DNA of 64,000 nt from contig DAOMFI010000002.1 in NCBI GenBank assembly GCA_035429725.1, positions 13,324 through 77,323 on the forward strand, in the 5' to 3' direction. The notes below the pieces were generated by a model, which saw only the letters and a program-made list of their open reading frames with translations, had not been told where the DNA came from and did no database searches. This document shows positions 3,481 through 61,103 of this stretch, piece by piece (positions within the stretch are counted from its first letter, which is position 1; every line of letters begins with the position of its first letter). Position numbers and translations under genes: made by a program. The stretch comes from Burkholderiaceae bacterium. GTDB lineage: Bacteria > Pseudomonadota > Gammaproteobacteria > Burkholderiales > Burkholderiaceae_F.

Positions 3481-3867
3481 TCAGTGCGGCTTGCTCGCGG
3501 CGCTGGCGGTGGCCCGGCGCCGCGAAGCCCGGCGTTTCGGCGCTGCGCGCGGCTGAACCGCTTCGGGTACCGACTCCGACTTCGCACTGGTTGCCGCGGC
3601 AGCCGCGACGGATGCGGTGGCGAAGGCCTGCGCGTCGATATCCTGGCGTGCATCCTCGCGGACCTCGGCCCAGAGGTCGGTCAGTTCCTCGCGCGACTCG
3701 GCGAGCGCTCCGGCGACGCGTTCGACACCGCCTGCCACCGCGCGCGCCACGCGCCGAAGCACCTGCGGGTCGCGCGCGACGACGAACCCGGCAGCGAACC
3801 CGAGCGCGCCGACCGCAGCAATGCCGAGCACGACGGCTCCGGGTTTCAACAGGTCACTTGCATTCAT
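3481..3867 (-). CDS. small single-pass membrane protein, DUF1490-like (tentative)
   Basis: 128 aa. It has an N-terminal TM helix (GAVVLGIAAVGALGFAAGFVV), an Ala/Arg/Glu-rich helical region and a basic tail. Its ATG abuts the stop of the upstream gene (TGAATG at 3865-3870). The architecture resembles the DUF1490 proteins found next to P-type ATPases in mycobacteria. Confidence 0.6.
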   Translation of the reverse strand: MNASDLLKPGAVVLGIAAVGALGFAAGFVVARDPQVLRRVARAVAGGVERVAGALAESREELTDLWAEVREDARQDIDAQAFATASVAAAAATSAKSESVPEAVQPRAAPKRRASRRRATASAASKPH

Positions 3868-5910
3868 TCAGTACTCCTCGTCAGACATTTGGGTTTCGGG
3901 TTCACGCTGCGCCCGCCGGCGCGAACGTGCGAATGAGCGCACATTCACGTCGACACGCGCCAGCCGGGCGCTTTCCTCGAGCAGGATGAACGCCAGCCCG
4001 TGCTTGATCGACGCGATCGCGATCGGCGGCAGCCAGCGCATCGCCGCAGCGATCATCAGGCCGGCATTCAGCGTGACCGAGCGGCCGAACTGGCGGCGCA
4101 GCGCGCGCCGGACTGCGACCGCAGCCTGCCGCGCCGCCAACAGGGAAGGCAGCGGTTCGCCGAGCAGCACGCCGTGCGCGCCCGCTTCGGCATCGACCGG
4201 ACACAGGCTGAGCCCGCCCGGCGGAAGAAGGTCGCGCAGACCCGTGTGCACCAGTGCGACACGCTCGCCCCGTTCGACGGCGCTGTCGAGCCAGCGTTCC
4301 TGCGTCTGACGGTCCTGACTGACGACGACATCGGCGCCGATCTGAGTCAGCGCCAGAGCCGGTTGTGCAGTCGGATCTTCGGTGAATACCGCGATGCGGC
4401 GTACCCCGAGCGCTCGCAACTCGGCCAGCTGCGCTGACACTTCGGGACGCAGGCGGCAACTGAGATGGACGGTCGCCAGCAGCCGGCCATCTTCGACGAT
4501 GCCGAGTCGCCGCACCAGGCTGCGTCGATCCGGTTCGGGCAGCGGCAGGCCCCAGGTCTGCGCGACCAATACGGCGCCGCCGATATGCACGACCCGCCCA
4601 TCGGTCCGCAGCAGTGCACCGTGCTCGCGCCACGCCGCAACCTGTTCGTCCGGGACCCCGGCCCTCACCAACTTGCCGTCGGCGTGTCCGGCCAGCAGCG
4701 AAAGCCAGCGCCGCACGTCGCGTTCACCGACTTCGTCGGCCTGCGGAATCACGCGCTCGACGAACCAGTAGGGTTCGGCAAGCACCCCGACATCCTCGAA
4801 CGCGAAGGTCGTCGCGGTCGCCAGTCGATCGAGACTCTCGAGACCGCTCAGCAGCGCGCCATGGCGCGCGGTCGCGTACAACGCAGCCTCCCGCGCGACC
4901 GGCTGCGCGAGCGAGATCCCGGTCTGCGGATCAGCCTGCAGCATCGCGGCCGTGCGAGCGGTATCGCCGGTCAGCGCAAGCACCAGCCCGGCGGCGGTCA
5001 TCGGCAGCGCGACGAGCCGTTCGAGATCCGGGGTCAGCGGACCCGGCGCATCACGCGTGCGCAGCACATGACGCACATGGTCGTGCAGCCGCTCGCTGCG
5101 CGAGTGCTTCGGCGGCCGTTCGATCCGGAGCAACACACTGCCGACGAGAACGCGCGTCCCCGACGTCAGCCGCGCGCCGCGCTGCACGTGGCGGGTTGCC
5201 GCTTCGTCGAGCAGCGGCGCCGTGGTCTCCGCCTCGCCGTCGACGACGATGCCGTCGGCCGGAACGGTGGCACCGCTGCCCAGCCAGGCATGATCACCCG
5301 CCTGCAGGTCGCCCAAGCCCGCGGCCAGCGGCCGGCCCCCGCGCTGGATTTCGTAGCTTCGGCCCGCGCCCGGCGCGAGATGAGCGAGCAGCTGATCGGT
5401 TTCGCGCAGCATCGCGTTGCGCCGCCGCTCGGCGACTGCGCCCATCAGCACCGACGTGGTCGCGGTCAGCGGGTGGCCGGTCAACGCGGTGGCCGCCAAT
5501 GCGACGGAGTCGAGCGCGATCGCCGTGATATCGGCGCCCTTCGTCCAGGCGGTGAACGACTTGCCGGCCAGCAGCGTCAGCGCCAGAGCGGAGCGCGCCG
5601 GCAGCGGCAACAACGGTGCCAGCGACGCCGCGAGCAGCGATGCCTCGAGCGGCAACGTCTCGTCGCGTCGGCGCGGCAGTTCGACGCCTGCACGCTGTGC
5701 CAGCGTCGATGTCAGTTCGATGATTGCGCGTCGCGTCGCAATCCGGCCGTCGTAGTTCAGCGTCAACGAGCGCGCCGGTGCCGAAACCCGCACCGATCTC
5801 ACTCCGCGCAGCATTTCGAGCGCAACGCGCGCCTGCGAGGCGTCATTGCCCGGCGCCAGGCGCAAGCGGATGCGCGTCGCGGTTTCGTGCACGACTTGCG
5901 CGCCGAGCAT
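3868..5910 (-). CDS. P1B-like P-type ATPase paralog with degenerate catalytic motifs (probable pseudo-ATPase)
   Basis: 680 aa from ATG 5910-5908, which lies 2 nt after the upstream stop. It aligns to the heavy-metal ATPase scaffold, but LTGES->LDEAA (5197-5211), CPC->DPQ (4924-4932), FDKTGT->FEDVGV (4780-4809), TGD->TED and GDGxND->HTGLRD. It carries an N-terminal Cys-less HMA-like domain. Confidence 0.8.
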   Translation of the reverse strand: MLGAQVVHETATRIRLRLAPGNDASQARVALEMLRGVRSVRVSAPARSLTLNYDGRIATRRAIIELTSTLAQRAGVELPRRRDETLPLEASLLAASLAPLLPLPARSALALTLLAGKSFTAWTKGADITAIALDSVALAATALTGHPLTATTSVLMGAVAERRRNAMLRETDQLLAHLAPGAGRSYEIQRGGRPLAAGLGDLQAGDHAWLGSGATVPADGIVVDGEAETTAPLLDEAATRHVQRGARLTSGTRVLVGSVLLRIERPPKHSRSERLHDHVRHVLRTRDAPGPLTPDLERLVALPMTAAGLVLALTGDTARTAAMLQADPQTGISLAQPVAREAALYATARHGALLSGLESLDRLATATTFAFEDVGVLAEPYWFVERVIPQADEVGERDVRRWLSLLAGHADGKLVRAGVPDEQVAAWREHGALLRTDGRVVHIGGAVLVAQTWGLPLPEPDRRSLVRRLGIVEDGRLLATVHLSCRLRPEVSAQLAELRALGVRRIAVFTEDPTAQPALALTQIGADVVVSQDRQTQERWLDSAVERGERVALVHTGLRDLLPPGGLSLCPVDAEAGAHGVLLGEPLPSLLAARQAAVAVRRALRRQFGRSVTLNAGLMIAAAMRWLPPIAIASIKHGLAFILLEESARLARVDVNVRSFARSRRRAQREPETQMSDEEY

Positions 5911-5912
5911 CG

Positions 5913-8900
5913 TCACGCCTGCGGATCCTGGGAGGCCGGCTTGGCGGCGCGCCACCGCAGCCGCTTCAGCGTCTCGCGCGCCAGCGTCGGCGAAGCGGCG
6001 CAGGCCGCGATGACCGCGGCGTCGACCACGCCGATCGGCGCCGTGCGCAGCAGCGAACGCAGTGGAGGGAACAGCACCGTAGCCGCCTGCGCACCGAGTG
6101 AAACGATGACGGTGCCCGTAAGCCACGGATTGCGCCGAAGCCGGCCGCGGCCGAAGAGCTTGAGCGGCGCCTCCGAACGCGCCGACAGTGCGTACAGCAA
6201 CTGCGAGCTGGTCAGTGTCATGAACGCGATCGTCCGGGCGCGCGGCGTCGGGCCGTAACGTGCGAGCCCGTACAGGAACGCCGCCATCGCGGCCGCGGTC
6301 ATCATGCCGCCATCGGTCGCGACCGTTTTCCAGTCGCGTGCGGTGAGCAGGCTCGACGTGCGCGGAAACGGTGGCCGCTCCAGGACGTCGGGCTCGGGCG
6401 GTTCGAGTCCGAGCGCGATCGCCGGCGAAACGTCGGTGATCAGGTTCGTCCACAGCAGTGCGAGCGGATCGAGCGGATCCGGCAGTCCGGCCACGACCGC
6501 GAGCCCCATCAGGCCCAGCTCGCTGACGTTCGTCGACACCAGGTACCGCACCGCCTTCTTCACGTTCAGGTAGGAAGTGCGACCCTCGGCGATCGCCGCC
6601 AGCAGGCCGTCCGGGTGGTCGTCCTGCAGCACGAGGTGGCTCATCGCCTGCGCGAAGTCGGTGCCGCTCGCGCCCATCGCAACTCCGACGTCCGCGGTCT
6701 TCAGTGCCGGGCCGTCATTGACGCCGTCGCCGGTCATCGCGACGACATGCCCCTTCGATTGCAGCGCGCGGATGATCTGAAGCTTCATCGCCGGGCTGCT
6801 GCGCGCAAAGCCGGTGGAGTGCTCGACCGCGTCGACCAGCTGCCGCGAATCTTCCGGCAGCGCACCGGCGTCGGCGACATGCTGCTCGCCGTTCAGGCCG
6901 ATCTCGCGCGCGACCGCCTGCGCGGTCCCGAGCTGGTCGCCGGTCAGCATCACCGTGCGGATTCCGGCCGCACGGAAGCGCGCGATCGACTTCGCGATTC
7001 CCGGCCGCAGCGGGTCCGAGAGACCGACCAGGCCCAGCCAGATCATCTCCCCGGTCGTTCCGAGCCTGCGCCCCTTCTGGCGCTTGATCGCGAGCGCGAG
7101 CACACGCTGGCCGAGCGCCGCGAGCGCGTCGTTTTCCTTCAACAGGCGCTTGCGCTGCGGCGCCGTCAGTGCGACGACGCGCCTGCCGTCGAACCATGTC
7201 CGGCAGCGCTCCAGCACCTCGGTCGGGCGCCCCTTCATCGCGACGATCGATTCGCCGCCCGTGGTACGCGTGGCCGCATGCAGCGTCACCATGTAAGGGT
7301 GATGCTCCGAGCGCTGCTTGATCTCGAGCCGCGGATGGCGCGCGCGCAGCGCCGGAACGTCGGCGCCGTGCGCAGCGGCCATCTCGATCAGCGCGATCTC
7401 GGTCGATGAACCCTGCCACCCGCCGCCGTTGGCCTCTTCGACATCGTTGCAGAGCGCGCAGACGCGCATCCATTCGTCGGGCAGCTCGAGTTGGTCGTCG
7501 CGGTTCTCCGAAAAATCAAAGCGGCACGTGCCCAACACGGCCGACGCGACGCTCATCCGGTTCTGCGTCAGCGTCCCGGTCTTGTCGAATCCGACGACGT
7601 CGACCGCGCCGAGGTTCTCGATCGCGTCGAGGCGTCGTGCATACACGTTGCGCTTCTGCAGCGTGCGGATGCCCGCGGCGAGCAGGCTGGTCGCGACGGT
7701 CGGCAGTCCTTCGGGAATGGCGGCCACGCCGAGCGAGACCGCGGTGCGCAGCAGCGGCAACGCCGGGCGGCCGCGCAGCAGACCGACCGCGAACAGGCCG
7801 ATGCACAGTCCCGACGCACCAATCGCCAGCCGCTTGCCGAGGCCGTCGAGCTCCTCCTGCATGCGAGTGTGGGGTGCTTCCGCAGTCTGCGCGAGCGCGC
7901 GAATGCTGCCGAGCGCGGTGCGCTCCGCGGTCGCGACGACCAGCGCGCGGCCGGTGCCGCCGGAGATCACGGTCCCCATGTGCAGCATGTTGCGGCGTTC
8001 GCCGAGTGGCGTCGCCAGCGGCAGGCTGTCGATCGACTCCTTGCGCACCGGCAGGCTCTCGCCGGTCAGCGGCGCCTCGTTGGCCGACAGCCGATGCGAC
8101 TCGATCACTCTTCCGTCGGCCGGAATCTGATCGCCAGGGGAAAGTACGAGCACGTCGCCGACGACGATTTCGCGCGCCGGCACCGAAACCTCCGCGCCGT
8201 CGCGCAGCACGGTGGCCGAACGCGGTGCCAGTTTGCGCAACGCGGACACCGTCTGCTCGGCGCGCCGCTCGGTCACGTAGCCGATCGCGCCGTTGGCCGC
8301 CAGCACGGTTCCGATCGCGGCGGCGTCGCCGAACGCACGCGTCGCCAGCGCGAGCGCGCCCGAGCCGGCGAGCAGCGCCACCGGCACCGAGTTGAACTGA
8401 TCGGTGAGGATCTCGATGTCCGAGCGCGCAGTGATGTCCCGGATTTCGTTCGGACCATGCTCAAGCAGGCGGCGGGCGGCCTCAGCCACCCCGAGACCCT
8501 CGAGATCCGCGTGCATCTCGGTCAGCAGAGCCTTCAGGCTGCTGTGATGGTGGCGCGTACTGAAATCGGTGCGCCGCGCCTTTTGCGTCTCGGCCGGCGG
8601 TGCGGCCGCCTTGCGTGGTTCGATCGAGCGGCCGGAGTGCGCCGGCGCGTCGATGTCCGGCGCGCGCTTGATCGCGCGCCGCGCGGCTCGCGGTCGACGC
8701 GGCTCCGAGCGCAGGCCATAGTCGCCTAACGCCCGTTCGAGAGCTTCTGCCCACGGCGGAGGATCGCTGTTGCGTGCGCGCCGGTCATCGACGCGCACGA
8801 TTCCGCTGTCAGCGCTCGCGAGCAGTCGCGCGCCGGGCGGCACCTCGCCCGCGTTCTGCAGCCAGTCCGCCAGCGCGGGATTTCCACGCAGGCCGCGCAC

Positions 8901-8981
8901 GCGAAAGCGCGGGCCAAGCGGTCCGGGCGCCAGTCGCAAAACGGCGGGCGGCGGCGAGGGAGGGGCTACGTCGCGCGGCAT
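5913..8981 (-). CDS. cation-transporting P-type ATPase (P2-like), catalytically intact
   Basis: 1022 aa. TGES (8055-8066), IPEGLP, DKTGT (7572-7586), KGRPTEVL, MLTGDQ and GDGVND (6714-6731) are all present. A Cation_ATPase_N-like GVAEAARRLLEHGPNEI follows a ~150 aa N-terminal extension. There is no obvious SD, so the start is uncertain. Confidence 0.9.
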   Translation of the reverse strand: MPRDVAPPSPPPAVLRLAPGPLGPRFRVRGLRGNPALADWLQNAGEVPPGARLLASADSGIVRVDDRRARNSDPPPWAEALERALGDYGLRSEPRRPRAARRAIKRAPDIDAPAHSGRSIEPRKAAAPPAETQKARRTDFSTRHHHSSLKALLTEMHADLEGLGVAEAARRLLEHGPNEIRDITARSDIEILTDQFNSVPVALLAGSGALALATRAFGDAAAIGTVLAANGAIGYVTERRAEQTVSALRKLAPRSATVLRDGAEVSVPAREIVVGDVLVLSPGDQIPADGRVIESHRLSANEAPLTGESLPVRKESIDSLPLATPLGERRNMLHMGTVISGGTGRALVVATAERTALGSIRALAQTAEAPHTRMQEELDGLGKRLAIGASGLCIGLFAVGLLRGRPALPLLRTAVSLGVAAIPEGLPTVATSLLAAGIRTLQKRNVYARRLDAIENLGAVDVVGFDKTGTLTQNRMSVASAVLGTCRFDFSENRDDQLELPDEWMRVCALCNDVEEANGGGWQGSSTEIALIEMAAAHGADVPALRARHPRLEIKQRSEHHPYMVTLHAATRTTGGESIVAMKGRPTEVLERCRTWFDGRRVVALTAPQRKRLLKENDALAALGQRVLALAIKRQKGRRLGTTGEMIWLGLVGLSDPLRPGIAKSIARFRAAGIRTVMLTGDQLGTAQAVAREIGLNGEQHVADAGALPEDSRQLVDAVEHSTGFARSSPAMKLQIIRALQSKGHVVAMTGDGVNDGPALKTADVGVAMGASGTDFAQAMSHLVLQDDHPDGLLAAIAEGRTSYLNVKKAVRYLVSTNVSELGLMGLAVVAGLPDPLDPLALLWTNLITDVSPAIALGLEPPEPDVLERPPFPRTSSLLTARDWKTVATDGGMMTAAAMAAFLYGLARYGPTPRARTIAFMTLTSSQLLYALSARSEAPLKLFGRGRLRRNPWLTGTVIVSLGAQAATVLFPPLRSLLRTAPIGVVDAAVIAACAASPTLARETLKRLRWRAAKPASQDPQA

Positions 8982-9031
8982 CGTAAGGAGCGAATCTAGG
9001 CGCCGTTGCCTGAGTTCGTATGACCGTTGCG

Positions 9032-9062
9032 TGACATGTCATTGGCGCTTGCGCTAGCGCAA
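9032..9062. promoter_or_regulatory. two perfect palindromes upstream of the ATPase operon (candidate operator sites)
   Basis: TGACATGTCA (9032-9041) and TTGCGCTAGCGCAA (9049-9062) lie 51-81 bp upstream of the ATPase start codon at 8981. Confidence 0.35.
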
Positions 9063-9085
9063 TGGGAAAGTACCGCGACCGCCGC

Positions 9086-9540
9086 TCAAGCACCGACCGC
9101 GACCTTCAACCCGGTAGCGCGCAGGCGGGGCACCAGCGCTTCGCCGAGCGCGGTGGCCGGTGTGTCAGCACGCCGCCGCAGGCCGCCCCGCCCGGCAGCT
9201 TTGCACCGTCGAACGCGAGGCACAGGCCGGACTCGCACAGGATGCGCAGCGTCGCGCGGTTGCCCGGGTCGCCGTCGTATGCGATGCGCGCGCGCGCCAT
9301 GCGGCCGTCTCCCGCGCGGCCGATCAGCTCGGTCGTGAACCAGCCGCTTGCCATCGTCTGCTCCGACGGACCTTCGCCGAGCTTCGGCAGCACCGCGCCG
9401 AGCAACGCGCGCGCGGCGGGGCTTTTCATCGCGAGATCGAATCCGGCCATCCCCGCGGCCAGCGCGCGCGCCTTCGCCTGCGCCAGCGGCGCATCGAGCT
9501 TCCTTTGTGGTGGGCCTACTCGGCGGCGCGATTTCATTTC
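9086..9540 (-). pseudogene. saccharopine dehydrogenase-like / trans-acting enoyl reductase family, C-terminal remnant
   Basis: GEGPSEQTMASGWF...IAYDGDPGNRATLRILCESGLCLAFDG...GGVLT, then a 2-nt frameshift near 9159-9166, after which PATALGEALVPRLRATGLKVAVGA* continues in another frame. The N-terminal NAD-binding half is absent. Confidence 0.6.
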
Positions 9541-9635
9541 ACGCCACGGTGCGGGCACTGCGCACCGGAACGTGGAACAAATGACATTCCTTCCGGGCAA
9601 TTTCGGACATCGAGGCAACCCAGCGGCATCGATGC

Positions 9636-10967
9636 TTAGCTGACAGCGCGAATCGCTTCTCGCACAGAACTGATGCTCGAACTCGCATGCACCGGCGCCG
9701 AGCTCATCGAAGTCGAACTTCCAGGCCGGCGATCCGGCCCCGACGTGTGCTGCAAAAAGAAGCGGACCATTTCGGTGGCCGCATCGGGGCCGCGCGGATC
9801 CGTGTACGAACCGGCGCGGCTGCCGCCAAACCACGCGTGGCCACCCCCATGTACGAGCCAGTGTTCGAGCAGCACTCGCCCGCCGGCGTCGCGGTGGAGC
9901 GTCCTGGTGAAAGTGTGACCGCCAGGCGCTCGACCCTCCTCGGTCAACACTTGCCCACCGTCGCCACCCTCCCAGTGTGCGGACCTTGAAATCGCATCGA
10001 TTCCGTTGCGCGGATGCACGGTCCGGTCGCGATCGCCGTGAAAGACGATCGTAGGCGTCGAGTGCAACATGCGTTCTGTTGCCGAGCGCTGACGGATCGT
10101 GAGTGACACTCCTTTCATCACCGCAAGCGCGCTTGGCAGATCGTGCGCGCTGCCGCAGGCGAGGCCAGAGTGAATACCGACGGCCGCGTATAGGTCGGGG
10201 TAGGTCACTCCCATGATCGCCGCCATCGCGCCTCCCGCGGACAGGCCGGCGACGAACACACTGCGCGAATCAGCGCCGTAGCGGTCGATGATGGTCCGCG
10301 TCATGTCCGCAATGATCGACGGCTCCCCCGCATCCCGAACCTGGTTCTCACGCAGATACCAGTTCCAGCACCGCGAATGATTGGCCGTTTCGGATTGCGC
10401 GGGATACAGGACAAAGCAGCCGCCTTCTTCAGCCAGCGCGTTCATCCGCGTTCCAACCGCGAGGTCGTCCGGCGTCTGCCTGCAGCCGTGCAGCATGACG
10501 ATCAGCGGTAACGGCTGTCCGACGCAGCAGGAGGGCACATACAGTTTGTAGGCACGTTGCCCGGCCGCGTTCTGAAAGTTGCCTGCAATCCACTCGCTAG
10601 CGACGGCTGCGCTGCGCACAGTGTCTGGCGCAAATTCATCCGCTGCCGCTTCTTCGTGCGGAGGGGATCGGACCGCGCCCTCGGCCGCGGCATGGGTCTC
10701 CGTGATGCCGCGCGCATTGGCGGCCAGCCCGGCTTCTTCGCGATCCCGAGGCAGCGCGACCTCAACGCTTAGACCCTCGCTAAGGCCTGTCTGCGCGCGA
10801 TCGGTCGCCGCTGGCCTTCCGTCAACCCGTGCGGCGCCTCGGCTGCCCGAATGCCCCTTCGGGATCAGTCGGGCTGCCCCGGCCAGCAGGACCGTCCGTG
10901 TCCATCGCATCGCCCGAGCGACGCGGGGCGAGATCTTCGTGAGCATCGCCTCCTTTCTGCAAAGCAA
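9636..10967 (-). CDS. PHB-depolymerase-family esterase (LpqC-like), N-terminus doubtful
   Basis: AGQRAYKLYVPS...PLIVMLHGCRQTPDDLAVGTRMNALAEEGGCFVLYPAQSETANHSRCWNWY...VFVAGLSAGGAMAA...YAAVGIHSGL. The first ~120 codons are low-complexity and overlap IS-like sequence on the other strand. Confidence 0.7.
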   Translation of the reverse strand: MLCRKEAMLTKISPRVARAMRWTRTVLLAGAARLIPKGHSGSRGAARVDGRPAATDRAQTGLSEGLSVEVALPRDREEAGLAANARGITETHAAAEGAVRSPPHEEAAADEFAPDTVRSAAVASEWIAGNFQNAAGQRAYKLYVPSCCVGQPLPLIVMLHGCRQTPDDLAVGTRMNALAEEGGCFVLYPAQSETANHSRCWNWYLRENQVRDAGEPSIIADMTRTIIDRYGADSRSVFVAGLSAGGAMAAIMGVTYPDLYAAVGIHSGLACGSAHDLPSALAVMKGVSLTIRQRSATERMLHSTPTIVFHGDRDRTVHPRNGIDAISRSAHWEGGDGGQVLTEEGRAPGGHTFTRTLHRDAGGRVLLEHWLVHGGGHAWFGGSRAGSYTDPRGPDAATEMVRFFLQHTSGPDRRPGSSTSMSSAPVHASSSISSVREAIRAVS

Positions 10968-11011
10968 TCGCCGCTCGCGGTCGCGCGCACAGCGCGTCGA
11001 CCAGCGGACAC

Positions 11012-11711
11012 CAACGGCGGCGGCTGACGCAGGCGCGCATCGGCCACGCGCTGGGCGTGTCCTGCAGTACCGTCAGCCGCGTACTGGCGCGCGCTGGACT
11101 GTCGCGACTGCGGGAGCTGGAGCCGGCCGACCCGGTGCAGCGCTATGAGCATGCGGCGCCGGGCGATCTGCTGCATATCGATGTCAAAAAGCTCGGCCGC
11201 ATCGCCCGCCCGAGCCATCGCGTCACCGGCAACCGCCGGGACACCGTTGAGGGCGCCGGTTGGGAGTATCTGTTCGTGGCGGTGGACGATCACGCCCGCA
11301 TCGGCTTCTCCGGCGTCTATGCCGAGGAGCGCGCCGCCACGGCCAGCCAGTTCCTGCACAACGCGGTGGCCTATTACCACTCGCTCGGTGTGCGGGTGCG
11401 CCGCGTCTTGACCGATAACGGCGGCGTGTTCCGGTCCAGAGACTTCATCGCCGCCTGCCACCGGCTGCGCATCAAGCAACGCTTCACCCGCGCCTACCGG
11501 CCGCAAACCAACGGCAAGGCCGAGCGGTTCATCCAGTCCGCGCTGCGCGAGTGGGCCTATGCCTTCACCTACCAGAACTCCGCCGAGCGCACCGCCGCTC
11601 TGGACGACTGGATCCACCATTACAACTGGCACCGCCCGCACCAAGGTATCCAAGGAGTCGCGCCCATGCAAAGACTCAGCGCTTCAAGAAACAACCTCTT
11701 GACGCTTCACA
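11012..11711 (+). mobile_element. IS481-family insertion sequence remnant (5'-truncated), right terminus ...CTTCACA
   Basis: The transposase core carries the DDE residues: HIDVKKLGRI, VLTDNGGVFRS, RPQTNGKAERFIQ, HHYNWHRPHQG, NNLLTLHN. The first ~80 codons and the left inverted repeat are missing. The right end, CTTCACA (11705-11711), is the IS481-type terminus. Confidence 0.8.
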
Positions 11712-11717
11712 ACTTAG

Positions 11718-11990
11718 CTGGGCCGGCAGCTGGGGCAACCGGTCGTCATCGAGAACCGCGGCGGCGCCGGCGGCAACATCGCGGCCGAGGCGGTTGCCAA
11801 GTCGCCGGCCGACGGCTACGCGCTGTTCCTGGGCCCGGTCGGCACGATGACGATCAACCCGTTCGTCTACGCGAAGATGCCGTTCGACACGATGAAGGAC
11901 TTCGCGCCAATCTCGCAGCTGACGTCGCTGCCGATCGTGATGGTCGTCAATCCGTCCGTTCCCGCGAAGAACGTGAAGGAGTTCATCGCC
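11718..11990 (+). pseudogene. Bug/TctC-family receptor, middle fragment (continuation of 2951-3098)
   Basis: LGRQLGQPVVIENRGGAGGNIAAEAVAKSPADGYALFLGPVGTMTINPFVYAKMPFDTMKDFAPISQLTSLPIVMVVNPSVPAKNVKEFIA follows directly on ...ARLVGD. The C-terminal ~200 aa are missing. Confidence 0.75.
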
Positions 11991-11997
11991 GTACCTG

Positions 11998-12642
11998 GTG
12001 GTACAGCCCGACGGCAGCGCCGACGTGACCAAGCTCGCGGGAACCGGCGGCGTGGTCAACCGTGCGATCTGCACCGAGCACCTGATCTACGAGATCCACG
12101 ACCTCGCCAACTACGTCACGCCCGACGTGGTCGTCGACTTCAGCGACGTGCGGCTCGACGAGGTGGATAATGACCGCGTGCGCATGAGCGGCGTCCGCGG
12201 CAAGCCGCGTCCCGACCAGTTGAAGGTGTCGATCGGCGTGAAGGAAGGCTGGATCGGGGAGGGCGAGATCACCTACGCGGGGCTCGGATGCCTCAACCGG
12301 GCGCGCCTCGCCGAACAGGTGGTGCGGGAACGACTGAGGATTTCCGGCGTGCAGCTCGAGGAACTTCGGGTCGACTACATCGGCCTGAATTCGCTGCACG
12401 GCGAGGCTTCCATCCCGCCGAAGGAGCCGCCGTACGAGGTGCGGCTGCGCTTCGCCGGCCGGGCGAAGACGAAACGCGAGGCGGTGCGGCTGGGCAACGA
12501 AGTCGAGACGCTGGTCGGTAAGGGGCCGTGCAGCTCGTCGCTGCCGCGGCAATACGTGCGCGAAGTCCTGGCGATCTACTCCTGCCTGATCCCGCACAGC
12601 GTCGTCAGGCCGGAAGTCGTGTTCGCGGAGAGCGGGGGATGA
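11998..12642 (+). pseudogene. AtuA-like DUF1446 protein, C-terminal ~214 aa only (5'-truncated)
   Basis: VVQPDGSADVTKLAGTGGVVNRAICTEHLIYEIHDLANYVTPDVVVDFSDVRLDEVDNDRVRMSGVRGKPRPDQLKVS. This is fused without a gap to the Bug fragment, and the N-terminal ~240 aa of the family are absent. Confidence 0.65.
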
Positions 12643-55183: not shown

Positions 55184-56500
55184 ATGCGAAGACGCACGTT
55201 TTTCGGAAGGGCCGGTCGCGTGGTCGCGGGTCTGGCGACATTGCTACTGGCTGCGTGCGGTCAGGCAGGGCCGACGGAACCGGGCAAGAAGGGCGGTGGC
55301 GCAGCGCCGGCGCCCGAGGTGAACGTCGTCACGGTGCAGCCGCAGCAGGTGGTACTCACCACTGAACTCGCGGGTCGCACCAGCGCCTACCAGGTCGCGG
55401 AGGTGCGGCCGCAGGTGGGCGGCATCCTGAAGGAGCGGCTTTTTCGCGAGGGCAGCGAGGTGAAGGCGGGGCAGCCGCTGTACCGGATCGAACCTTCCAC
55501 GTTCGAGGCCGAGGTCGAGCGCGTGCAGGCTGCTCTTGTCAAGGCCGAGGCGAACATCGCCACCACGAAGCTGCGCGCCGAACGGTACGCCGAACTGGTG
55601 AAGATCAACGCCGTCAGCCAGCAGGCCTACGATGATGCCGAGGTCGCGCACAAGCAGGCCGTCGCGGATGTTGCCGCCGCAAAGGCGGCGCTGCAGTCGG
55701 CCAAGATCGCGCTCGGCTTCACTACGGTGACGGCGCCGATCAGCGGGCGGATCGGCCGCTCGTCCGTGACGCAGGGCGCGCTGGTGACGGCCAACCAGGC
55801 AAGCGCCCTGGCGACCATTCAGCGACTCGATCCGATCTACGTCGACGTCACGCAGTCGAGCGCTGAGCTTCTGCAGTTGCGGCGCGACCTCGAGTCCGGC
55901 GCGCTGAAAAGCGCCGGGCCTGACCAGGCCGGCGTGAAGCTGCTGCTCGAAGATGGCACACCCTATGCGCGGCAAGGCAAGCTGCAGTTCTCCGAAGTCA
56001 GCGTGGATCCGGCCAGCGGCAGCGTGACTTTGCGGGCGATCTTCCCCAACCCGCGCCAGCAGCTGCTGCCCGGCATGTACGTCCGGGCGGTGCTGGACGC
56101 GGGCGTGCGCGACAGCGCGTTGCTGGTGCCGCAGGAGGCCGTAACGCGTGACCCGAAAGGCAGTGCGAGCGCGATGATCGTCGCGGCGGACGGGACGGTC
56201 CAGCCGCGCATGCTGAAGACCGAGCGCACCGTCGGCAGATACTGGCTCGTCAGCGAAGGTCTCGCCGCCGGCGATCGGGTCATCGTGGAAGGCCTGCAGA
56301 AGGTCCGGCCGGGCGCGGCGGTCCGGCCGGTGGAGCGGCCCTCCCCGACCGCGGGCGGTACGGCTGGAAGCCCCGCCGCTTCAGCCAATGCGACGTTGCC
56401 GGGCGGCGGCAGGAATTCTCCCGGCGCTCCATCCCAGACCGCAGCCGACTCAGCGGGCAAGGGCGAAACCAAGGCCGGAGCGTCGGCGGCCGGCCGCTGA
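55184..56500 (+). CDS. RND efflux periplasmic adaptor (MFP, AcrA/MexA-like lipoprotein)
   Basis: Lipobox [36 protein letters not shown], and a Pro/Ala/Gly-rich C-terminal tail. Confidence 0.92.
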
Positions 56501-56523
56501 ACGCCCATTGCGCGGGAGCACTC

Positions 56524-59500
56524 ATGGCTCGTTTCTTCATCGACCGACCGATTTTCGCCTGGGTGATCGCGATCGTGATCATGCTGTCGGGCGGCCTGGC
56601 GCTCACCGGCCTGCCGGTATCCATGTACCCGCAGATTGCGCCGCCGGCGGTCGTCATCAACGCCAGCTACCCAGGCGCATCGGCGAAGACCGTGGAGGAC
56701 TCGGTCACGCAGGTCATCGAGCAGAAGATGACCGGACTGGACAACCTGCTGTACATGTCGTCGAGCTCGGATTCGAACGGCGCCGCCACTGTCACGCTGA
56801 CCTTCCGCGCCGGCACGAACCCGGACATCGCGCAGGTACAGACGCAGAACAAGCTGCAGCTCGCGCTGCCGCTGCTGCCGCAGGCCGTGCAGGAGCAGGG
56901 CGTGCGCGTCAACAAGTCGACGGCGGACTTCCTGATGCTGGTCGGCTTCATCTCCGAAGACGGCCGGATGAGCAACATCGATCTTGCCGACTACGTCGTC
57001 ACCAACCTGCAGGAGCCGCTGTCGCGGGTGCCCGGCGTCGGCGACATCACTTCGTTCGGCACCCAGTACTCGATGCGCATCTGGCTCGATCCGGCAAAGC
57101 TGCAGCAGTACCGGCTCGTGCCGGCCGATGTCACCGCGGCGGTCCGTGCGCAGAACGCACAGGTGTCGGCCGGCCAGCTCGGTGGGCTGCCCGCGATTCC
57201 GGGCCAACGGCTGAACGCGACGATCACCGCGCAGAGCCGCCTGCAGACGCCGGAGCAGTTCGGCGACATTCTGCTCATCACGCGCCCGGATGGCGCGGTC
57301 GTCCGGCTGCGTGACGTCGCCCGCATCGAGATCGGCGCGGAGAACTACCAGAATATCTCGCGCTACAACGGCTTACCGGCGACAGGCGTGGCGGTGCGCC
57401 TCGCGCCGGGCGCCAACGCCCTGTCCACGGCCGACGCCGTGCGCGCCCGTGTGGCCGAGTTGTCGAAGAACTTCCCGCCGGGCATGAAGGCGGTCGACGC
57501 CTTCGACACGACCCTGTTTGTGGGTGCGTCGATCGAGGAGGTGGTGAAGACACTGATCGAGGCCGTCGTGCTCGTCTTCCTCGTGATGTATCTGTTCCTG
57601 CAGAACTGGCGGGCGACGCTGATTCCCACGATCGCGGTCCCGGTCGTCCTGCTTGGCACGATGGGCATTCTGGCGGTGGCCGGCTTTTCGATCAACACAC
57701 TGACGATGTTCGCTCTGGTGCTGGCGATCGGCCTGCTGGTCGACGACGCCATCGTCGTGGTGGAGAACGTCGAGCGACTGATCCACGACGAGCATCTGAG
57801 TCCGCTCGAGGCCACGCGCAAGTCGATGGATCAGATCACCGGCGCGCTAGTCGGCATCGCCATGGTGCTGTCGGCCGTGTTCGTGCCGATGGCCTTCTTC
57901 GGCGGGTCCACCGGCGTGATCTACCGTCAGTTCTCGATCACGATCGTCTCGGCGATGGCGCTTTCGGTGCTGGTGGCGCTGATTCTGACGCCGGCGTTGA
58001 CGGCCTCGCTGCTGAAGCCCGCGCCCGAGAAGGGCCACCACATCGGCAAGGGCGGCTTCTTCGGCCGCTTCAACCGCGGGTTCGATGCCGCCGCCCGGAC
58101 GTTCGAGCGCAGCGTCGCCCACTCGTTCCGCAAGCCGCTTCGCTACGTTGCGATCTACCTCTCGGTGATCGGCGCCGCCGCGGTGATCCTGCTGCGGCTG
58201 CCGACCGCGTTCCTCCCGGAGGAGGACCAGGGCATCCTCTTCACGATGTTCGTGTTGCCGGCCGGCGCCACGCAGGAACGCACGCTGGACGTCGTCAAGA
58301 GTGTCGAGGACTTCTACCTGACACAGGAGAAGGACAACGTCGAGTCGATGTTCTCCGTCGCCGGTTTCAGTTTCGGCGGCAGCGGCCAGAACACCGGCAT
58401 GGCGTTCGTGAAGCTGAAGAACTGGGACGAACGGCCGGGCGCGGCGCGTAGCGCGCAGGCAATCGCCAGCCGCGCCATGGGGGCGTTTTCGCAGATCAAG
58501 GATGCGCTGGTGTTCGCGTTCGCTCCGCCGGCGGTGCCGGGCCTCGGCCAGGCGAACGGCTTCACGTTGCAGTTGCAGGACCGCGGCAACCTCGGGCACG
58601 AGCGGCTGATGGCGGCGCGCAACATGTTGCTGGGCCTCGCGGCCAAGGAGCCGGGACTCATGAGCGTGCGGCCGAACGGCCAGGAGGACACCCCGCAGCT
58701 TCAGCTGACGATCGATTCCGCAAAGGCCGGGTCGATGGGCGTCACGATGGCCGCCGTCAACGACATGCTCGCCACCGCCTGGGGCGGCACCTACATCGAC
58801 GACTTCGTCGACCGCGGGCGGCTGAAGCGCGTGTACCTGCAGGGCGCGGCGCCGTCGCGCATGGTGCCCGAGGACCTGCGCAAGTGGCACGTGCGCAACG
58901 CCACCGGCGACATGGTGCCGCTGTCCGCTTTCTCGACCGCGAGCTGGACCTACGGATCGCCGCGCCTCGAACGCTACAACGGCATCCCGACCCGGCAGAT
59001 CCAGGGTTCGGCCGCCCCGGGCAGTAGCTCCGGCCAGGCAATGGCCGCGATGGAGCGGCTGGTGGCCCAGGTGCAGCAGACCTTCCCGGGTGTTGCCCTC
59101 GAGTGGACTGCGCTTTCATTCGAGGAGCGCCAGTCGGGCGCGCAGGCGCCGCTGCTGTATGCACTGTCGCTGCTCGTAGTGTTCCTTTGCCTCGCTGCAC
59201 TGTATGAGAGCTGGTCGCTGCCCTTTTCCGTAATGCTGGCCGTCCCGTTCGGCATCTTCGGCGTGGCGCTCGCCACCTGGCTGCGGGGACTCGAGAACGA
59301 CGTTTACTTCCAGGTCGGCCTGCTGACGATCGTCGGCCTGTCGGCGAAGAACTCGATCCTCATCGTCGAGTTCGCGAAGGCTATGGTCGAGCAGGGCGAG
59401 GAACTGGTAAAGGCGACTCTCCACGCCGCCCGCATCCGGCTGCGACCGATCATCATGACGTCGCTCGCGTTCGGCTTCGGCGTGCTGCCGCTCGCGATCA

Positions 59501-59700
59501 GCAGCGGCGCGGGTGCCGGCGGGCGTCATGCGGTCGGAACGGGGGTGATCGGCGGCATGCTGGCCGCCACGCTCATCGGGGTGTTCTTCGTGCCGCTCTT
59601 CTTCGTTCTGGTGCGACGCTGGTTTCCCGACAAGCAGGTGGATAAGCAGGGCGCGGCGGCAGGGAACGCGGTCGCGGCCGGCGTGGGAGGGCGGGGATGA
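56524..59700 (+). CDS. RND multidrug efflux permease (HAE1, AcrB/MexB-like)
   Basis: 1058 aa. [21 protein letters not shown]..., [15 protein letters not shown], 12 TM helices and two large periplasmic loops. Confidence 0.95.
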
Positions 59701-61103
59701 CGACGTCGCTTCGACCGTCCGCCGCCGCGCTCGCGGCTGCCTCCGCGCTCGCCGGCTGTATGACACTCGCGCCGACCTACGAGCGCCCGGCCGCGCCGGT
59801 CCCCTCGAACTGGAGCGCGGCGAACGTCGCGACGGCGGGCAGATCCGCGCGGGACATCCCGTGGGAGCAGTTCTTTGCCGACGACCGTCTGCGCTCCCTG
59901 ATCGAGTTGACCCTCGCCAACAACCGCGACCTGCGTATCGCCGCGCTGAACATCGAGCGCGCCCGCGCGCAGTACCAGATCCAGCGTTCGGAGCTGTTTC
60001 CGTCGGTCGACGCGTCGATCGTAGGCACCAACCAGCGTGTGCCCGGCGAGTTGTCGGCGACTGGCGAGCCCGTGATCAACCGCAGCGTTGGCGCTGCCGT
60101 GGGCATCGTCAGCTACGAACTCGACCTCTTCGGCCGCATCCGCAGCCTGAACGACCAGGCGGCCTACCAGTACCTCGCGACGGAAGAAAGCCGGCGGGCC
60201 GTGCAGATCGCGCTGGTCGCGGAGGTGGCGAGCACGTGGCTGACGCTGGCGGCCGACCTGGAGCGGCTGCAGATCGCCGAGGCAACGTACAAGTCGCAGC
60301 GAGAGACGTTCGAGCTCGTGAAGAGGAGCAACGAACTGGGCGTGCAGTCCGGGCTCGATGTGCGCCAGGCCCAGGTGCTGCTCGAGGTCGCGCGCCGCGA
60401 CCGGGCCATCTATACGAGCCTGGTCGCCCAGGATCGCAACGCCCTCGCGCTTCTTGCGGGCGCGGCCGTTCCTCCGACGATGGAGCCGGCTGCGCCGTTG
60501 CCGCCCGGGGTCACAAGCGTGGCCGAACTGCCGTCCGGTGTTCCCTCGGAAGTGCTGACACGACGTCCGGACGTCATGGCGTCCGAGCGGCGGCTGCAGG
60601 CCGCGAACGCAAACATCGGTGCGGCCCGCGCGAATTTCTTCCCCCGCATCACACTGACGGGAAGCGCCGGCAGCGCGAGCCGCGAGCTGGATGGGCTGTT
60701 CGCCGCCGGTTCGCGCACGTGGGGCTTCACGCCGGCTGTCACGCTGCCGATCTTCACTGGCGGGGCGAACATCGCGACACTACAGGCGAGCGAGACGGAC
60801 CGCGCTATCGCGGTCGCCGCTTACGAGCGGGCGATCCAGTCCGCGTTCCGCGAGGTCGCGGACGCGCTGGCGCAGCGCTCGACGGTCGACGAGCAGTACC
60901 AGGCGCAGAAGGCGCTGGTCGAGGCGCTCGAGGACACCACGCAACTGTCGCTCGCGCGCTTCCGGAACGGCGTCGACAGCTACTTTGCTGTCCTCGACGC
61001 GCAGCGGCAGCTCTTCGCCGCGCAGCAGGTGCTTGCCGGACTCCGGCTGGCGCGCGATGCCAATCTCGTGACGCTCTACAAGGTGCTCGGAGGGGGGGCT
61101 TGA
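59697..61103 (+). CDS. outer-membrane efflux lipoprotein (OprM/NodT family)
   Basis: Lipobox [41 protein letters not shown]-terminal [12 protein letters not shown] overlap with the RND gene. Confidence 0.92.

Follow-up and report, generated by a model that had tools for sequence, protein, structure and literature searches.

Among kinases and AAA+ proteins, pseudoenzymes retained as partners of an active relative are a familiar phenomenon. For P-type ATPases such partners are, to our knowledge, almost unexplored, and the only described case is the N-terminal half of the mycobacterial proteins CtpH and CtpI. In this work we describe three adjacent genes, denoted A, B and C and together called the triad, which were found in a stretch of 64,000 nucleotides (nt) from a Burkholderiaceae bacterium (contig DAOMFI010000002.1); the whole stretch, with a G+C content of about 70%, is referred to as the window and all coordinates relate to it. 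Gene A encodes an intact P2-type pump, gene B a full-length P1B-type pump devoid of the catalytic motifs and gene C a small membrane protein. We regard it as fairly probable that B, with C, serves pump A as a partner or scaffold without catalytic function, which would make the triad a split-gene counterpart of the fused family FUPA24.

FUPA24 (TC 3.A.3.24) includes CtpH (Rv0425c) and CtpI (Rv0107c), and the abstract of Chan et al. 2010 is said to describe a type I ATPase fused to a type II one, with function kept only in the latter. In Mycobacterium tuberculosis both CtpH and CtpI consist of a degenerate N-terminal half and a canonical C-terminal half (PMC13460109; PMC3573892), and the degenerate half was still called an open enigma in a 2023 review (PMC10654040). 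The motifs D[Y/F]SCA and N-x18-HNxxT define the P1B-6 group, of which the ferrosome pump FezB was the first member (bioRxiv 10.1101/2020.01.10.902569), and CtpC, a mycobacterial zinc pump, has been described as P1B-6-like (bioRxiv 10.1101/2020.01.10.902569; PMC13460109). Small PacL scaffolds are required by their cognate mycobacterial pumps (PMC13460109). The locus for intracellular amorphous calcium carbonate in Microcystis holds two DUF5132 genes beside ccyA, a Ca2+/H+ exchanger and CoBaHMA proteins, CoBaHMA being a variant of the HMA domain with an extra first strand that carries a conserved His and with basic residues on the next strands.

One live and one dead P-type ATPase in a conserved gene unit

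Direct reading of the window confirmed the open reading frames (ORFs) and junctions of A, B and C as originally predicted, including the 128-amino-acid (aa) gene with a single transmembrane helix (TM) that abuts the stop of B. All motif coordinates were likewise reproduced on recomputation (Table 1), with the one correction that FEDVGVL ends at 4800 and not at 4809, having been drawn 9 nt too long. The three genes, all on the minus strand, are translationally coupled. The mechanical ORF of B is longer, reaching a GTG at 6453; this extra part overlaps A in a different frame, and the ATG at 5910 agrees with the start of all homologues. The public start of A (P0265, 995 aa) lies 27 codons 3' of the ATG at 8981 (window 8901-8981); since the MPRD start is kept in many orthologues, the longer form is probably the correct one. 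A hexamer GAGGAG, resembling a Shine-Dalgarno sequence, stands 6 nt 5' of the ATG of C. A protein identical to B is on record as 'hypothetical protein' in a Burkholderiaceae metagenome-assembled genome (MAG; P0001).

Table 1. Coordinates of the triad genes, their junctions, domains and motifs in the window
Feature	Position	Strand	Description	Basis
Gene A	5913-8981	(-)	1022 aa; intact P2A-type (SPCA/LMCA1-like) cation ATPase	
Folded N-terminal domain of A	8682..8981	(-)	about 100 aa, small alpha/beta, arginine-rich strand RFRVRGLRG	AlphaFold2 model, orthologue alignment
A, TGES	8055-8066	(-)		recomputed
A, IPEGLP	7701-7718	(-)		recomputed
A, DKTGT	7572-7586	(-)		recomputed
A, GDGVND	6714-6731	(-)		recomputed
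A/B junction, TGAcgATG	5910..5915	(-)	2-nt spacer; A stop 5913-5915, B start 5910	direct reading
Gene B	3868-5910	(-)	680 aa from ATG at 5910; pseudo-P-type ATPase, assigned to P1B-6 lineage	
B, N-terminal HMA-type domain (CoBaHMA / HMA_2-like)	5695..5910	(-)	His in extra first strand, RIRLRL in next	
B, LDEAA at actuator TGES position	5197-5211	(-)	position variable across family	
B, TM4 metal site DPQ	4924-4932	(-)	QADPQ instead of P1B-6 D[Y/F]SCA; D327 and P328 invariant	
B, FEDVGVL at FDKTGTL phosphorylation site	4780-4800	(-)	acceptor Asp replaced by Glu/Gln; next Lys replaced by invariant Asp	
B, TED at TGD position	4375-4383	(-)		recomputed
B, HTGLRD at GDGxND position	4231-4248	(-)	followed by family-specific block LLPPGGLSLCPVDAEAGAHGVLLGEPL	
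B/C junction, TGAATG	3865..3870	(-)	B stop 3868-3870, C start 3867	direct reading
Gene C	3481-3867	(-)	128 aa; single-pass membrane protein	

The product of gene A carries TGES, PEGLP, DKTGT, TGD and GDGVND as well as N..E in membrane helix M5 and N..TD in M6, and these are kept in 103-108 of its 108 orthologues. The full P2 set of Pfam domains (E1-E2_ATPase, Hydrolase, Cation_ATPase, Cation_ATPase_N and Cation_ATPase_C) was matched above the cut-offs, while the best NCBIfam model, TIGR01522 for PMR1-type Ca2+ ATPases, scored 542 bits against a cut-off of 798, and the SERCA-type model TIGR01116 scored 449 bits against 703. The best solved relatives, over residues 149-1009, were LMCA1 of Listeria (6zhf, 443 bits) and human SPCA1 (8iwp, 429 bits). 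Judged by these matches, A belongs to the P2A class of Ca2+-ATPases, but to no named equivalog.

In front of this pump core lies an N-terminal extension of about 140 aa, conserved in the orthologues, whose first ~100 residues were modelled by AlphaFold2 (AF2) with a predicted local distance difference test score (pLDDT) of 86.7 and in the order beta-beta-alpha-beta-beta-alpha. It has the order of secondary-structure elements of HMA_2-type domains and an arginine-rich strand. No significant link of this domain to HMA, HMA_2 or CoBaHMA was obtained: Pfam gave no match in any of 18 family members, hhalign against the N-terminal domain of B gave 0.2%, and Foldseek found nothing below E 0.65, the best matches of HMA fold having E ~0.9.

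For gene B, the original prediction of a P1B scaffold in which the catalytic signatures are replaced was upheld by domain models, fold and recomputed motifs alike. Pfam E1-E2_ATPase was matched with 38 bits, over its cut-off, and the P1B model TIGR01525 with 75 bits over residues 133-642, far under its cut-off of 346. AF2 returned a complete P1B-type fold with the A, P and N domains and the membrane core (pLDDT 79, predicted template modelling score 0.72), for which the best Foldseek matches were CadA (7qbz), ZntA (4umw) and CopA (7r0g), at E values of 1e-25 to 1e-23. Besides the replacements listed in Table 1, the SEHP segment, which in P1B pumps is the helix bearing the His-Pro motif for nucleotide binding, is deleted. 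As the acceptor Asp, the TGES loop, the His-Pro motif and the Mg2+ site of GDGxND are all lost, B is unable to run the Post-Albers cycle.

This loss is a property of the whole family and not of the single gene. In a search of ~5.8 billion proteins the B family comprised 114 clusters of 42-87% identity, after which the score broke from 389 to 63 bits, the latter belonging to ordinary P1B pumps. Neither DKTGT nor a CPC-type motif nor GDGxND occurs in any family member, a chance TGE[SAN] string is present in just two, and all catalytic motifs are replaced in 96 of the 96 full-length members. What stands in their place is highly conserved: QADPQ, F-[E/Q]-D-V-G-V-L and HTGLRD with the block LLPPGGLSLCPVDAEAGAHGVLLGEPL are kept in 88-95 of these 96, D373 is invariant and D560, within HTGLRD, nearly so, and LTPDLERL and PPGGLSLCPVDAEAGAHGVLLG form conserved surfaces specific to the family. 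Within the membrane, the polar residues D327, N615 and H637, which occupy the positions of the P1B-6 metal site, are invariant or nearly so, and the cytoplasmic domains are as conserved as the membrane part.

The N terminus of B (VVHETATRIRLRL...), in which AF2 placed the elements E5-9, E13-17, H24-32, E37-43, E48-53 and H57-72, fits the description of CoBaHMA with its modelled strands E5-9 and E13-17, although by hidden Markov model (HMM) it matches only HMA, and weakly. Residues E9, T10, R13 and R15 are nearly invariant. Of 20 family members searched with Pfam, 6 gave a match to HMA (best E 2.6e-4) and 1 a match to HMA_2 (E 0.17). The same pattern is seen at the N terminus of relatives that do match HMA_2, namely P0158, P0229 and P0219 above the Pfam cut-off and P0152 and P0154 below it.

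Selection on the triad was estimated as the ratio of nonsynonymous to synonymous substitution rates (dN/dS) by the method of Nei and Gojobori (NG86) in 29 locus pairs, which gave the rough ranges of 0.16-0.35 for B, 0.14-0.27 for A and 0.11-0.31 for C. From these pairwise ranges, B does not evolve neutrally, at a ratio near 1, and is under purifying selection that is only a little more relaxed than on A, the live pump.

The order of the genes was followed in 26 related loci, 23 of them from one genome per species and 3 from metagenome contigs. A is followed by B in all but L024, where the contig end falls inside B, and C comes after B in every locus whose contig reaches that far (those of L014 and L021 stop within B); in none of the loci examined was A found without B. 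The order A-B-C occurs also in L028 and in L032/L033, and the adjacency is shared across Burkholderiales and with a distant lineage. Stop and start codons of neighbouring triad genes often overlap, A and B doing so elsewhere by 4 to 11 nt (L002 8004/8001, L003 2595/2592, L028 6004/6001, L032 7011/7001). The hosts that could be named are Rubrivivax, Hydrogenophaga, Rhodoferax and Azohydromonas sediminis SYSU G00088 (L025), all Burkholderiales, the last being the only cultured isolate. Because the flanking genes vary between the loci, the conserved unit is just A, B and C. As a control we used 80 metagenome loci with live P1B relatives of 22-31% identity, obtained from a scan with a generic pattern of the intermediate dead clade, and a P2-type C-terminal domain was present within 6 kb in 0 of these 80; the adjacency of A and B is more than chance. 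A tblastn search of B against plasmids returned neither a close homologue nor a fusion. Taken together, the absence of canonical motifs from the family, the near-invariant replacements, the low dN/dS and the conserved order bear out the proposal that B is a retained pseudo-ATPase.

In one of the loci, L026 (3007-7989), which comes from a long-read Burkholderiales MAG, A and B alike are fragmented by frameshifts, which may reflect faulty assembly or a true decay in that genome.

Proteins of the C family have one TM helix with a near-invariant G-F-A-A-G (G23-F-A-A-G27, a GxxxG motif), followed by RDP..LRR, A.AE.RE...DLWAEAR and an Ala-rich basic tail, and their alignment shows RDP...RE...DLWAE as the invariant core. 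The assignment of this small protein as DUF1490-like did not hold. Pfam DUF1490 (PF07371) was matched in none of 12 family members up to E 10, and hhalign gave 0.2% and 0.9% against true members from Pseudonocardia and Rhodococcus, whose genes lie on plasmids just before CtpC-like pumps. A weak relationship to DUF5132 was found instead: hhalign of the C family against the DUF5132 proteins of L027 and L032 gave probabilities of 88% and 75%, and the positional equivalent of C in L032 scores 27.9 bits with the DUF5132 model against a cut-off of 25. With Pfam DUF5132 (PF17195) itself there was no match in the C of the window, and 1 of 12 family members matched at E up to 10. On these alignments C is a probable remote relative of DUF5132.

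C of the window ends in a conserved His (3481-3486), as do nine listed orthologues of the L003-L013 set (...KPH, ...TTH, ...TPH, ...SVH), and the orthologues of Rubrivivax/Hydrogenophaga type lack it; this single residue may correspond, in minimal form, to the His-rich tail that PacL proteins carry.

The neighbours of the triad in the window are unrelated metabolic genes and the remnant of an insertion sequence. No recognisable sigma-70 promoter was found in the 124-nt gap 8982-9105 before A, and scanning this DNA of 70% G+C for promoters and terminators gave nothing useful. Upstream of A lies a gene for an esterase of the PHB-depolymerase family (9636-10967, (-)), and between the two a 242-aa ORF (9106-9834, (-)) without a Pfam match. 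Further on, an IS481-like integrase-core ORF (rve/rve_3; 11057-12028, (+)) abuts the ORF 11998-12642 (+), whose match to the AtuA family model is confined to positions 233-436, and the region 11057-12642 looks like an insertion that truncated atuA. At 55184-61103 (+) three large ORFs in succession measure 438, 1058 and 468 aa; going by size alone, they resemble a tripartite RND efflux operon.

Ancestry of gene B and the fused double pumps

Among 1.84 billion representatives scored with a profile built from the B family, the family itself ranked first, followed by proteins of ~700 aa at 130-265 bits, most of them live, with DKTGT, TGES and GDGxND, and passing the cut-off of the P1B model. The live pumps with D[Y/F]SCA score in this range of 130-265 bits, whereas the solved full-length CopA, ZntA and CadA reach ~44-59 bits and the P1B controls P0115, P0116 and P0119 reach 74-104 bits. 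Both D[Y/F]SCA in TM4 and HNxxT in TM6 were present in 60 of the 83 live profile matches. B itself lacks these P1B-6 motifs, the corresponding sites reading LQADPQ and N615...H637-G; what it does keep are the LQAD preceding the TM4 motif, two residues of N-x18-HNxxT (Asn and His) and, at the N terminus, the His with the RxRxR strand. In a neighbour-joining (NJ) tree the B family forms a clade with P0140 and P0144 at 100% bootstrap, nested among the D[Y/F]SCA / N-x18-HNxxT pumps. By profile scores and tree, then, B is placed as a descendant specifically of the P1B-6 (FezB/CtpC-like) group and not of pumps of CopA/ZntA type, which corrects its description as merely P1B-like.

Several other lineages near B in the NJ tree are partly or wholly degenerate (P0158, P0162, P0166, P0167, P0171 and P0150). 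A single origin of all dead lineages has an NJ bootstrap of 22%, and long-branch attraction is likely. Among them P0167 of locus L032 reads FDHTGSLT and lacks TGES and GDGxND. The gene order there repeats that of the triad: a P2 pump 46% identical to A and also provided with an arginine-rich N-terminal extension, then the dead P0167 with an overlapping start, then a small DUF5132 protein. The context of P0413, also considered, is an unrelated Firmicute FeoA-HMA-ATPase-CobW locus and was set aside, as were those of P0158 and P0154, whose contigs are too short.

On the 3' side of the L032 triad (9524-11332) a HSP20 gene is followed by a Na_Ca_ex (cation/Ca2+ exchanger) gene, which is a hint of calcium handling.

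Fused forms of the two pump types were also encountered. The B profile found P0229 (L031), a protein of 1682 aa that joins HMA_2, a live P1B pump and a live P2A pump, and a search with it returned a series of fusions in Negativicutes and Peptococcaceae; the fusions from that search were of Bacillota, with none from mycobacteria. In P0229 and P0421-P0428 both halves carry DKTGT and GDGxND. In P0429, P0433 and P0435 (1504-1581 aa) these motifs remain only in the C-terminal P2 half, the degenerate sites of the N-terminal halves reading LLLENSWGLS, IFTDADVLC and LFDKPDYLF; these N-terminal halves match the B profile weakly, with best single-domain scores of 7-36 bits. The architecture of the three dead-plus-live fusions appears equivalent to that reported for CtpH/CtpI. 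The suggestion that the triad might correspond to one of the FUPA families came close, given the degenerate and canonical halves of CtpH/CtpI and the dead-plus-live fusions found here; the triad itself consists of split genes and not of one polypeptide.

The tandem pumps P0229 and P0421-P0428 (Negativicutes/Sporomusa), of ~1630-1714 aa, lack TGES in the N-terminal half, and P0425-P0428 lack it in both halves; one protein with two apparently phosphorylatable P-type ATPases is unusual. P2 pumps of ~1000-1090 aa with an N-terminal HMA_2 domain occur as well, e.g. in Pleurocapsa, Calothrix and Candidatus Magnetobacterium. On plasmid pMSMB2035 of Burkholderia ubonensis (L036) a P-type ATPase gene comes directly after HflK-HflC-SPFH genes, and P0211 and P0118 are P1B pumps fused to a Band_7/SPFH domain, which suggests a recurrent link of P-type pumps with membrane-microdomain scaffolds.

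Proposed role of B and alternative explanations

We propose that A, B and C would make up one operon and one pump system, in which A would be the only catalytic component, most likely exporting Ca2+ and possibly Mn2+. The pseudo-pump B, which cannot run a Post-Albers cycle, keeps the whole fold, the basic HMA-type domain and some polar TM residues. Made in step with A and assembled with it, B and C would control its stability, membrane placement or activity, C being analogous in architecture to the PacL scaffolds of mycobacterial pumps, which set a precedent for P1B pumps that depend on an accessory protein. The sequence data show the anatomy of the triad, the loss of motifs in B, purifying selection, conserved synteny and where B comes from; that the proteins bind one another, which ion A moves and what B adds is what we infer here, the partner role being drawn from synteny and coupling. 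The repeated evolution of fused pumps speaks for a relationship of A and B that is both physical and stoichiometric.

Several observations weigh against the proposed partner role or limit it. The N-terminal halves of the fusions have a different TM4 (of ACPSA type), P0229, the sole fusion N-half in the NJ tree, falls outside the B clade, and the live P2 pump, which comes last in the fusions, comes first in the split form. By these sequence comparisons B and the fusion N-halves are without a recent common origin, and the split and fused forms look like parallel outcomes rather than products of fission or derivation. Pump A reaches the NCBIfam equivalog cut-off neither of the PMR1-type nor of the SERCA-type Ca2+ pumps, which leaves Ca2+ as its likely rather than its established substrate. 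The link of C to DUF5132 is modest at 75-88% probability, that to DUF1490/PacL is one of architecture only, and the NG86 values of dN/dS are rough at 70% G+C.

That B alone is a channel, a counter-ion conduit or a metal sensor working through D327, N615 and H637, and is co-expressed with A without a stable complex, seems to us rather unlikely. It would explain why polar residues are kept at the P1B-6 metal-site positions, and there is a precedent in KdpFABC, where the ion pathway is separate from the P-type ATPase to which it is coupled; however, the cytoplasmic domains of B, needless for a bare channel, are equally conserved, strict adjacency with overlapping stop and start codons favours stoichiometric assembly, and fused versions exist.

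Slightly less probable still is that the triad builds or loads a membrane-bounded store of Ca, Mn or Fe mineral, A pumping inwards while B and C shape or target the membrane by their basic HMA-type domains, as was proposed for ferrosomes and for the carbonate inclusions of cyanobacteria. The live relatives of B are P1B-6 pumps, the class of FezB, and fez clusters also encode arginine-rich HMA-type and GxxxG proteins (bioRxiv 10.1101/2020.01.10.902569). Locus L027, which holds such a live relative, reads HMA_2 - P1B-6 - DUF5132 - HMA_2; in Microcystis, ccyA and the Ca2+/H+ exchanger gene cax have genes for DUF5132 and CoBaHMA proteins on their flanks; the N terminus of B has the CoBaHMA pattern of an extra first strand with His and of basic residues; and a Na_Ca_ex gene lies two genes downstream in L032. 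Yet no inclusion is reported for these Burkholderiales, the pump that loads the compartment in the ferrosome model is here the dead one, neither calcyanin nor other fez genes lie nearby, and the domain resemblances are weak by HMM. In its furthest form, to which we give a marginally smaller chance again, the triad might be a third case, after ferrosomes and carbonate loci, of a shared bacterial toolkit for membrane-bounded mineral or cation stores, made up of a cation pump, basic HMA-type (CoBaHMA / arginine-rich) domains and a DUF5132 / GxxxG single-pass protein, in which the Ca2+/Mn2+-type P2 pump took over transport, the former iron-type pump became a structural or targeting subunit, and an unseen compartment containing Ca or Mn would exist.

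Very improbable is an enzyme with non-canonical chemistry, acting for example via Asp373 next to the lost acceptor. The invariance of D373 and near-invariance of D560 might be taken in its favour, but as the glycine of DKTGT stays in register, D373 occupies the Lys and not the acceptor position, the acceptor position itself is Glu or Gln family-wide, and TGES, the His-Pro motif and two of the three acidic/glycine positions of GDGxND are gone. A decaying pseudogene left by recent local loss has practically no chance, since nothing beyond the missing motifs speaks for it, and recent decay is refuted by a frame open in ~96 full-length homologues down to 42% identity, by dN/dS well below 1, by the conservation of motifs of the family's own and by the lack of any homologue with canonical ones.

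With the partner role of B and C retained as the preferred explanation, the triad is no categorically new kind of system, because a dead pump paired with a live one is already known in fused form from FUPA24. For the same reason the pairing of an active with a dead pump has a precedent, and just the split-gene form is without one. We found no description of the split-gene form, P1B-6 ancestry, a DUF5132-like third gene and Burkholderiales distribution in combination. The ancestry of B also joins three lines of work so far unconnected, those on the P1B-6 ferrosome pumps, on scaffolds of PacL type and on the CoBaHMA/DUF5132 genes of cyanobacteria that form carbonate.

Comparison with known systems

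Each part of the triad resembles a described system and departs from it in its own way. Pump A shares with LMCA1 and SPCA1 the glutamate of PEGLP and the Asn and Asp of M6, but differs from them by its arginine-rich N-terminal extension of ~140 aa, by its constant association with B in the loci examined and by equivalog scores under the cut-offs. The P1B-6 pumps FezB and CtpC are the nearest live relatives of B by profile score and tree, and, as with B, the gene beside such pumps encodes a small single-pass protein (DUF5132 in L027, PacL1/DUF1490 for CtpC); B differs in having lost D[Y/F]SCA, HNxxT and the catalytic motifs and in standing always beside a P2 pump.

In the PacL-Ctp effluxosomes (CtpC, CtpG and CtpV) the scaffold has one TM, a Glu/Ala-rich helix and a disordered tail and is encoded beside a P-type ATPase. 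C has the same architecture, but it lies downstream of the pump genes where PacL lies upstream, it lacks a His-rich metal-binding tail, and by Pfam and hhalign it is not a DUF1490 member. The neighbourhood of calcyanin shares with the triad basic HMA-type domains, single-pass proteins of DUF5132 type and a Ca2+ transporter, the latter being a CAX exchanger there and a P-type pump here, where a calcyanin gene is lacking. This likeness is at domain level only and statistically weak for the proteins of the window, and the parallels with ferrosomes and carbonate loci are best taken as resemblances, not as homology of these proteins.

The closest counterpart remains FUPA24, compared here by the published description of CtpH/CtpI, in which a dead P-type module and a live P2 module are likewise in obligate association. 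The fused proteins are single polypeptides with the dead half first, whereas the triad has two genes with the live pump first and adds a third conserved gene, C. Its hosts are Burkholderiales and not Actinomycetota or Bacillota, and B comes, by its placement in the tree, from the P1B-6 clade, while the fusion N-halves examined have a different TM4. The dead half of CtpH/CtpI is fused to its partner and resides in a slow-growing pathogen; in the triad the two are separate genes, with at least one cultured non-pathogenic host, and because separate genes can be deleted, tagged or purified singly, the role of the dead half becomes directly testable.

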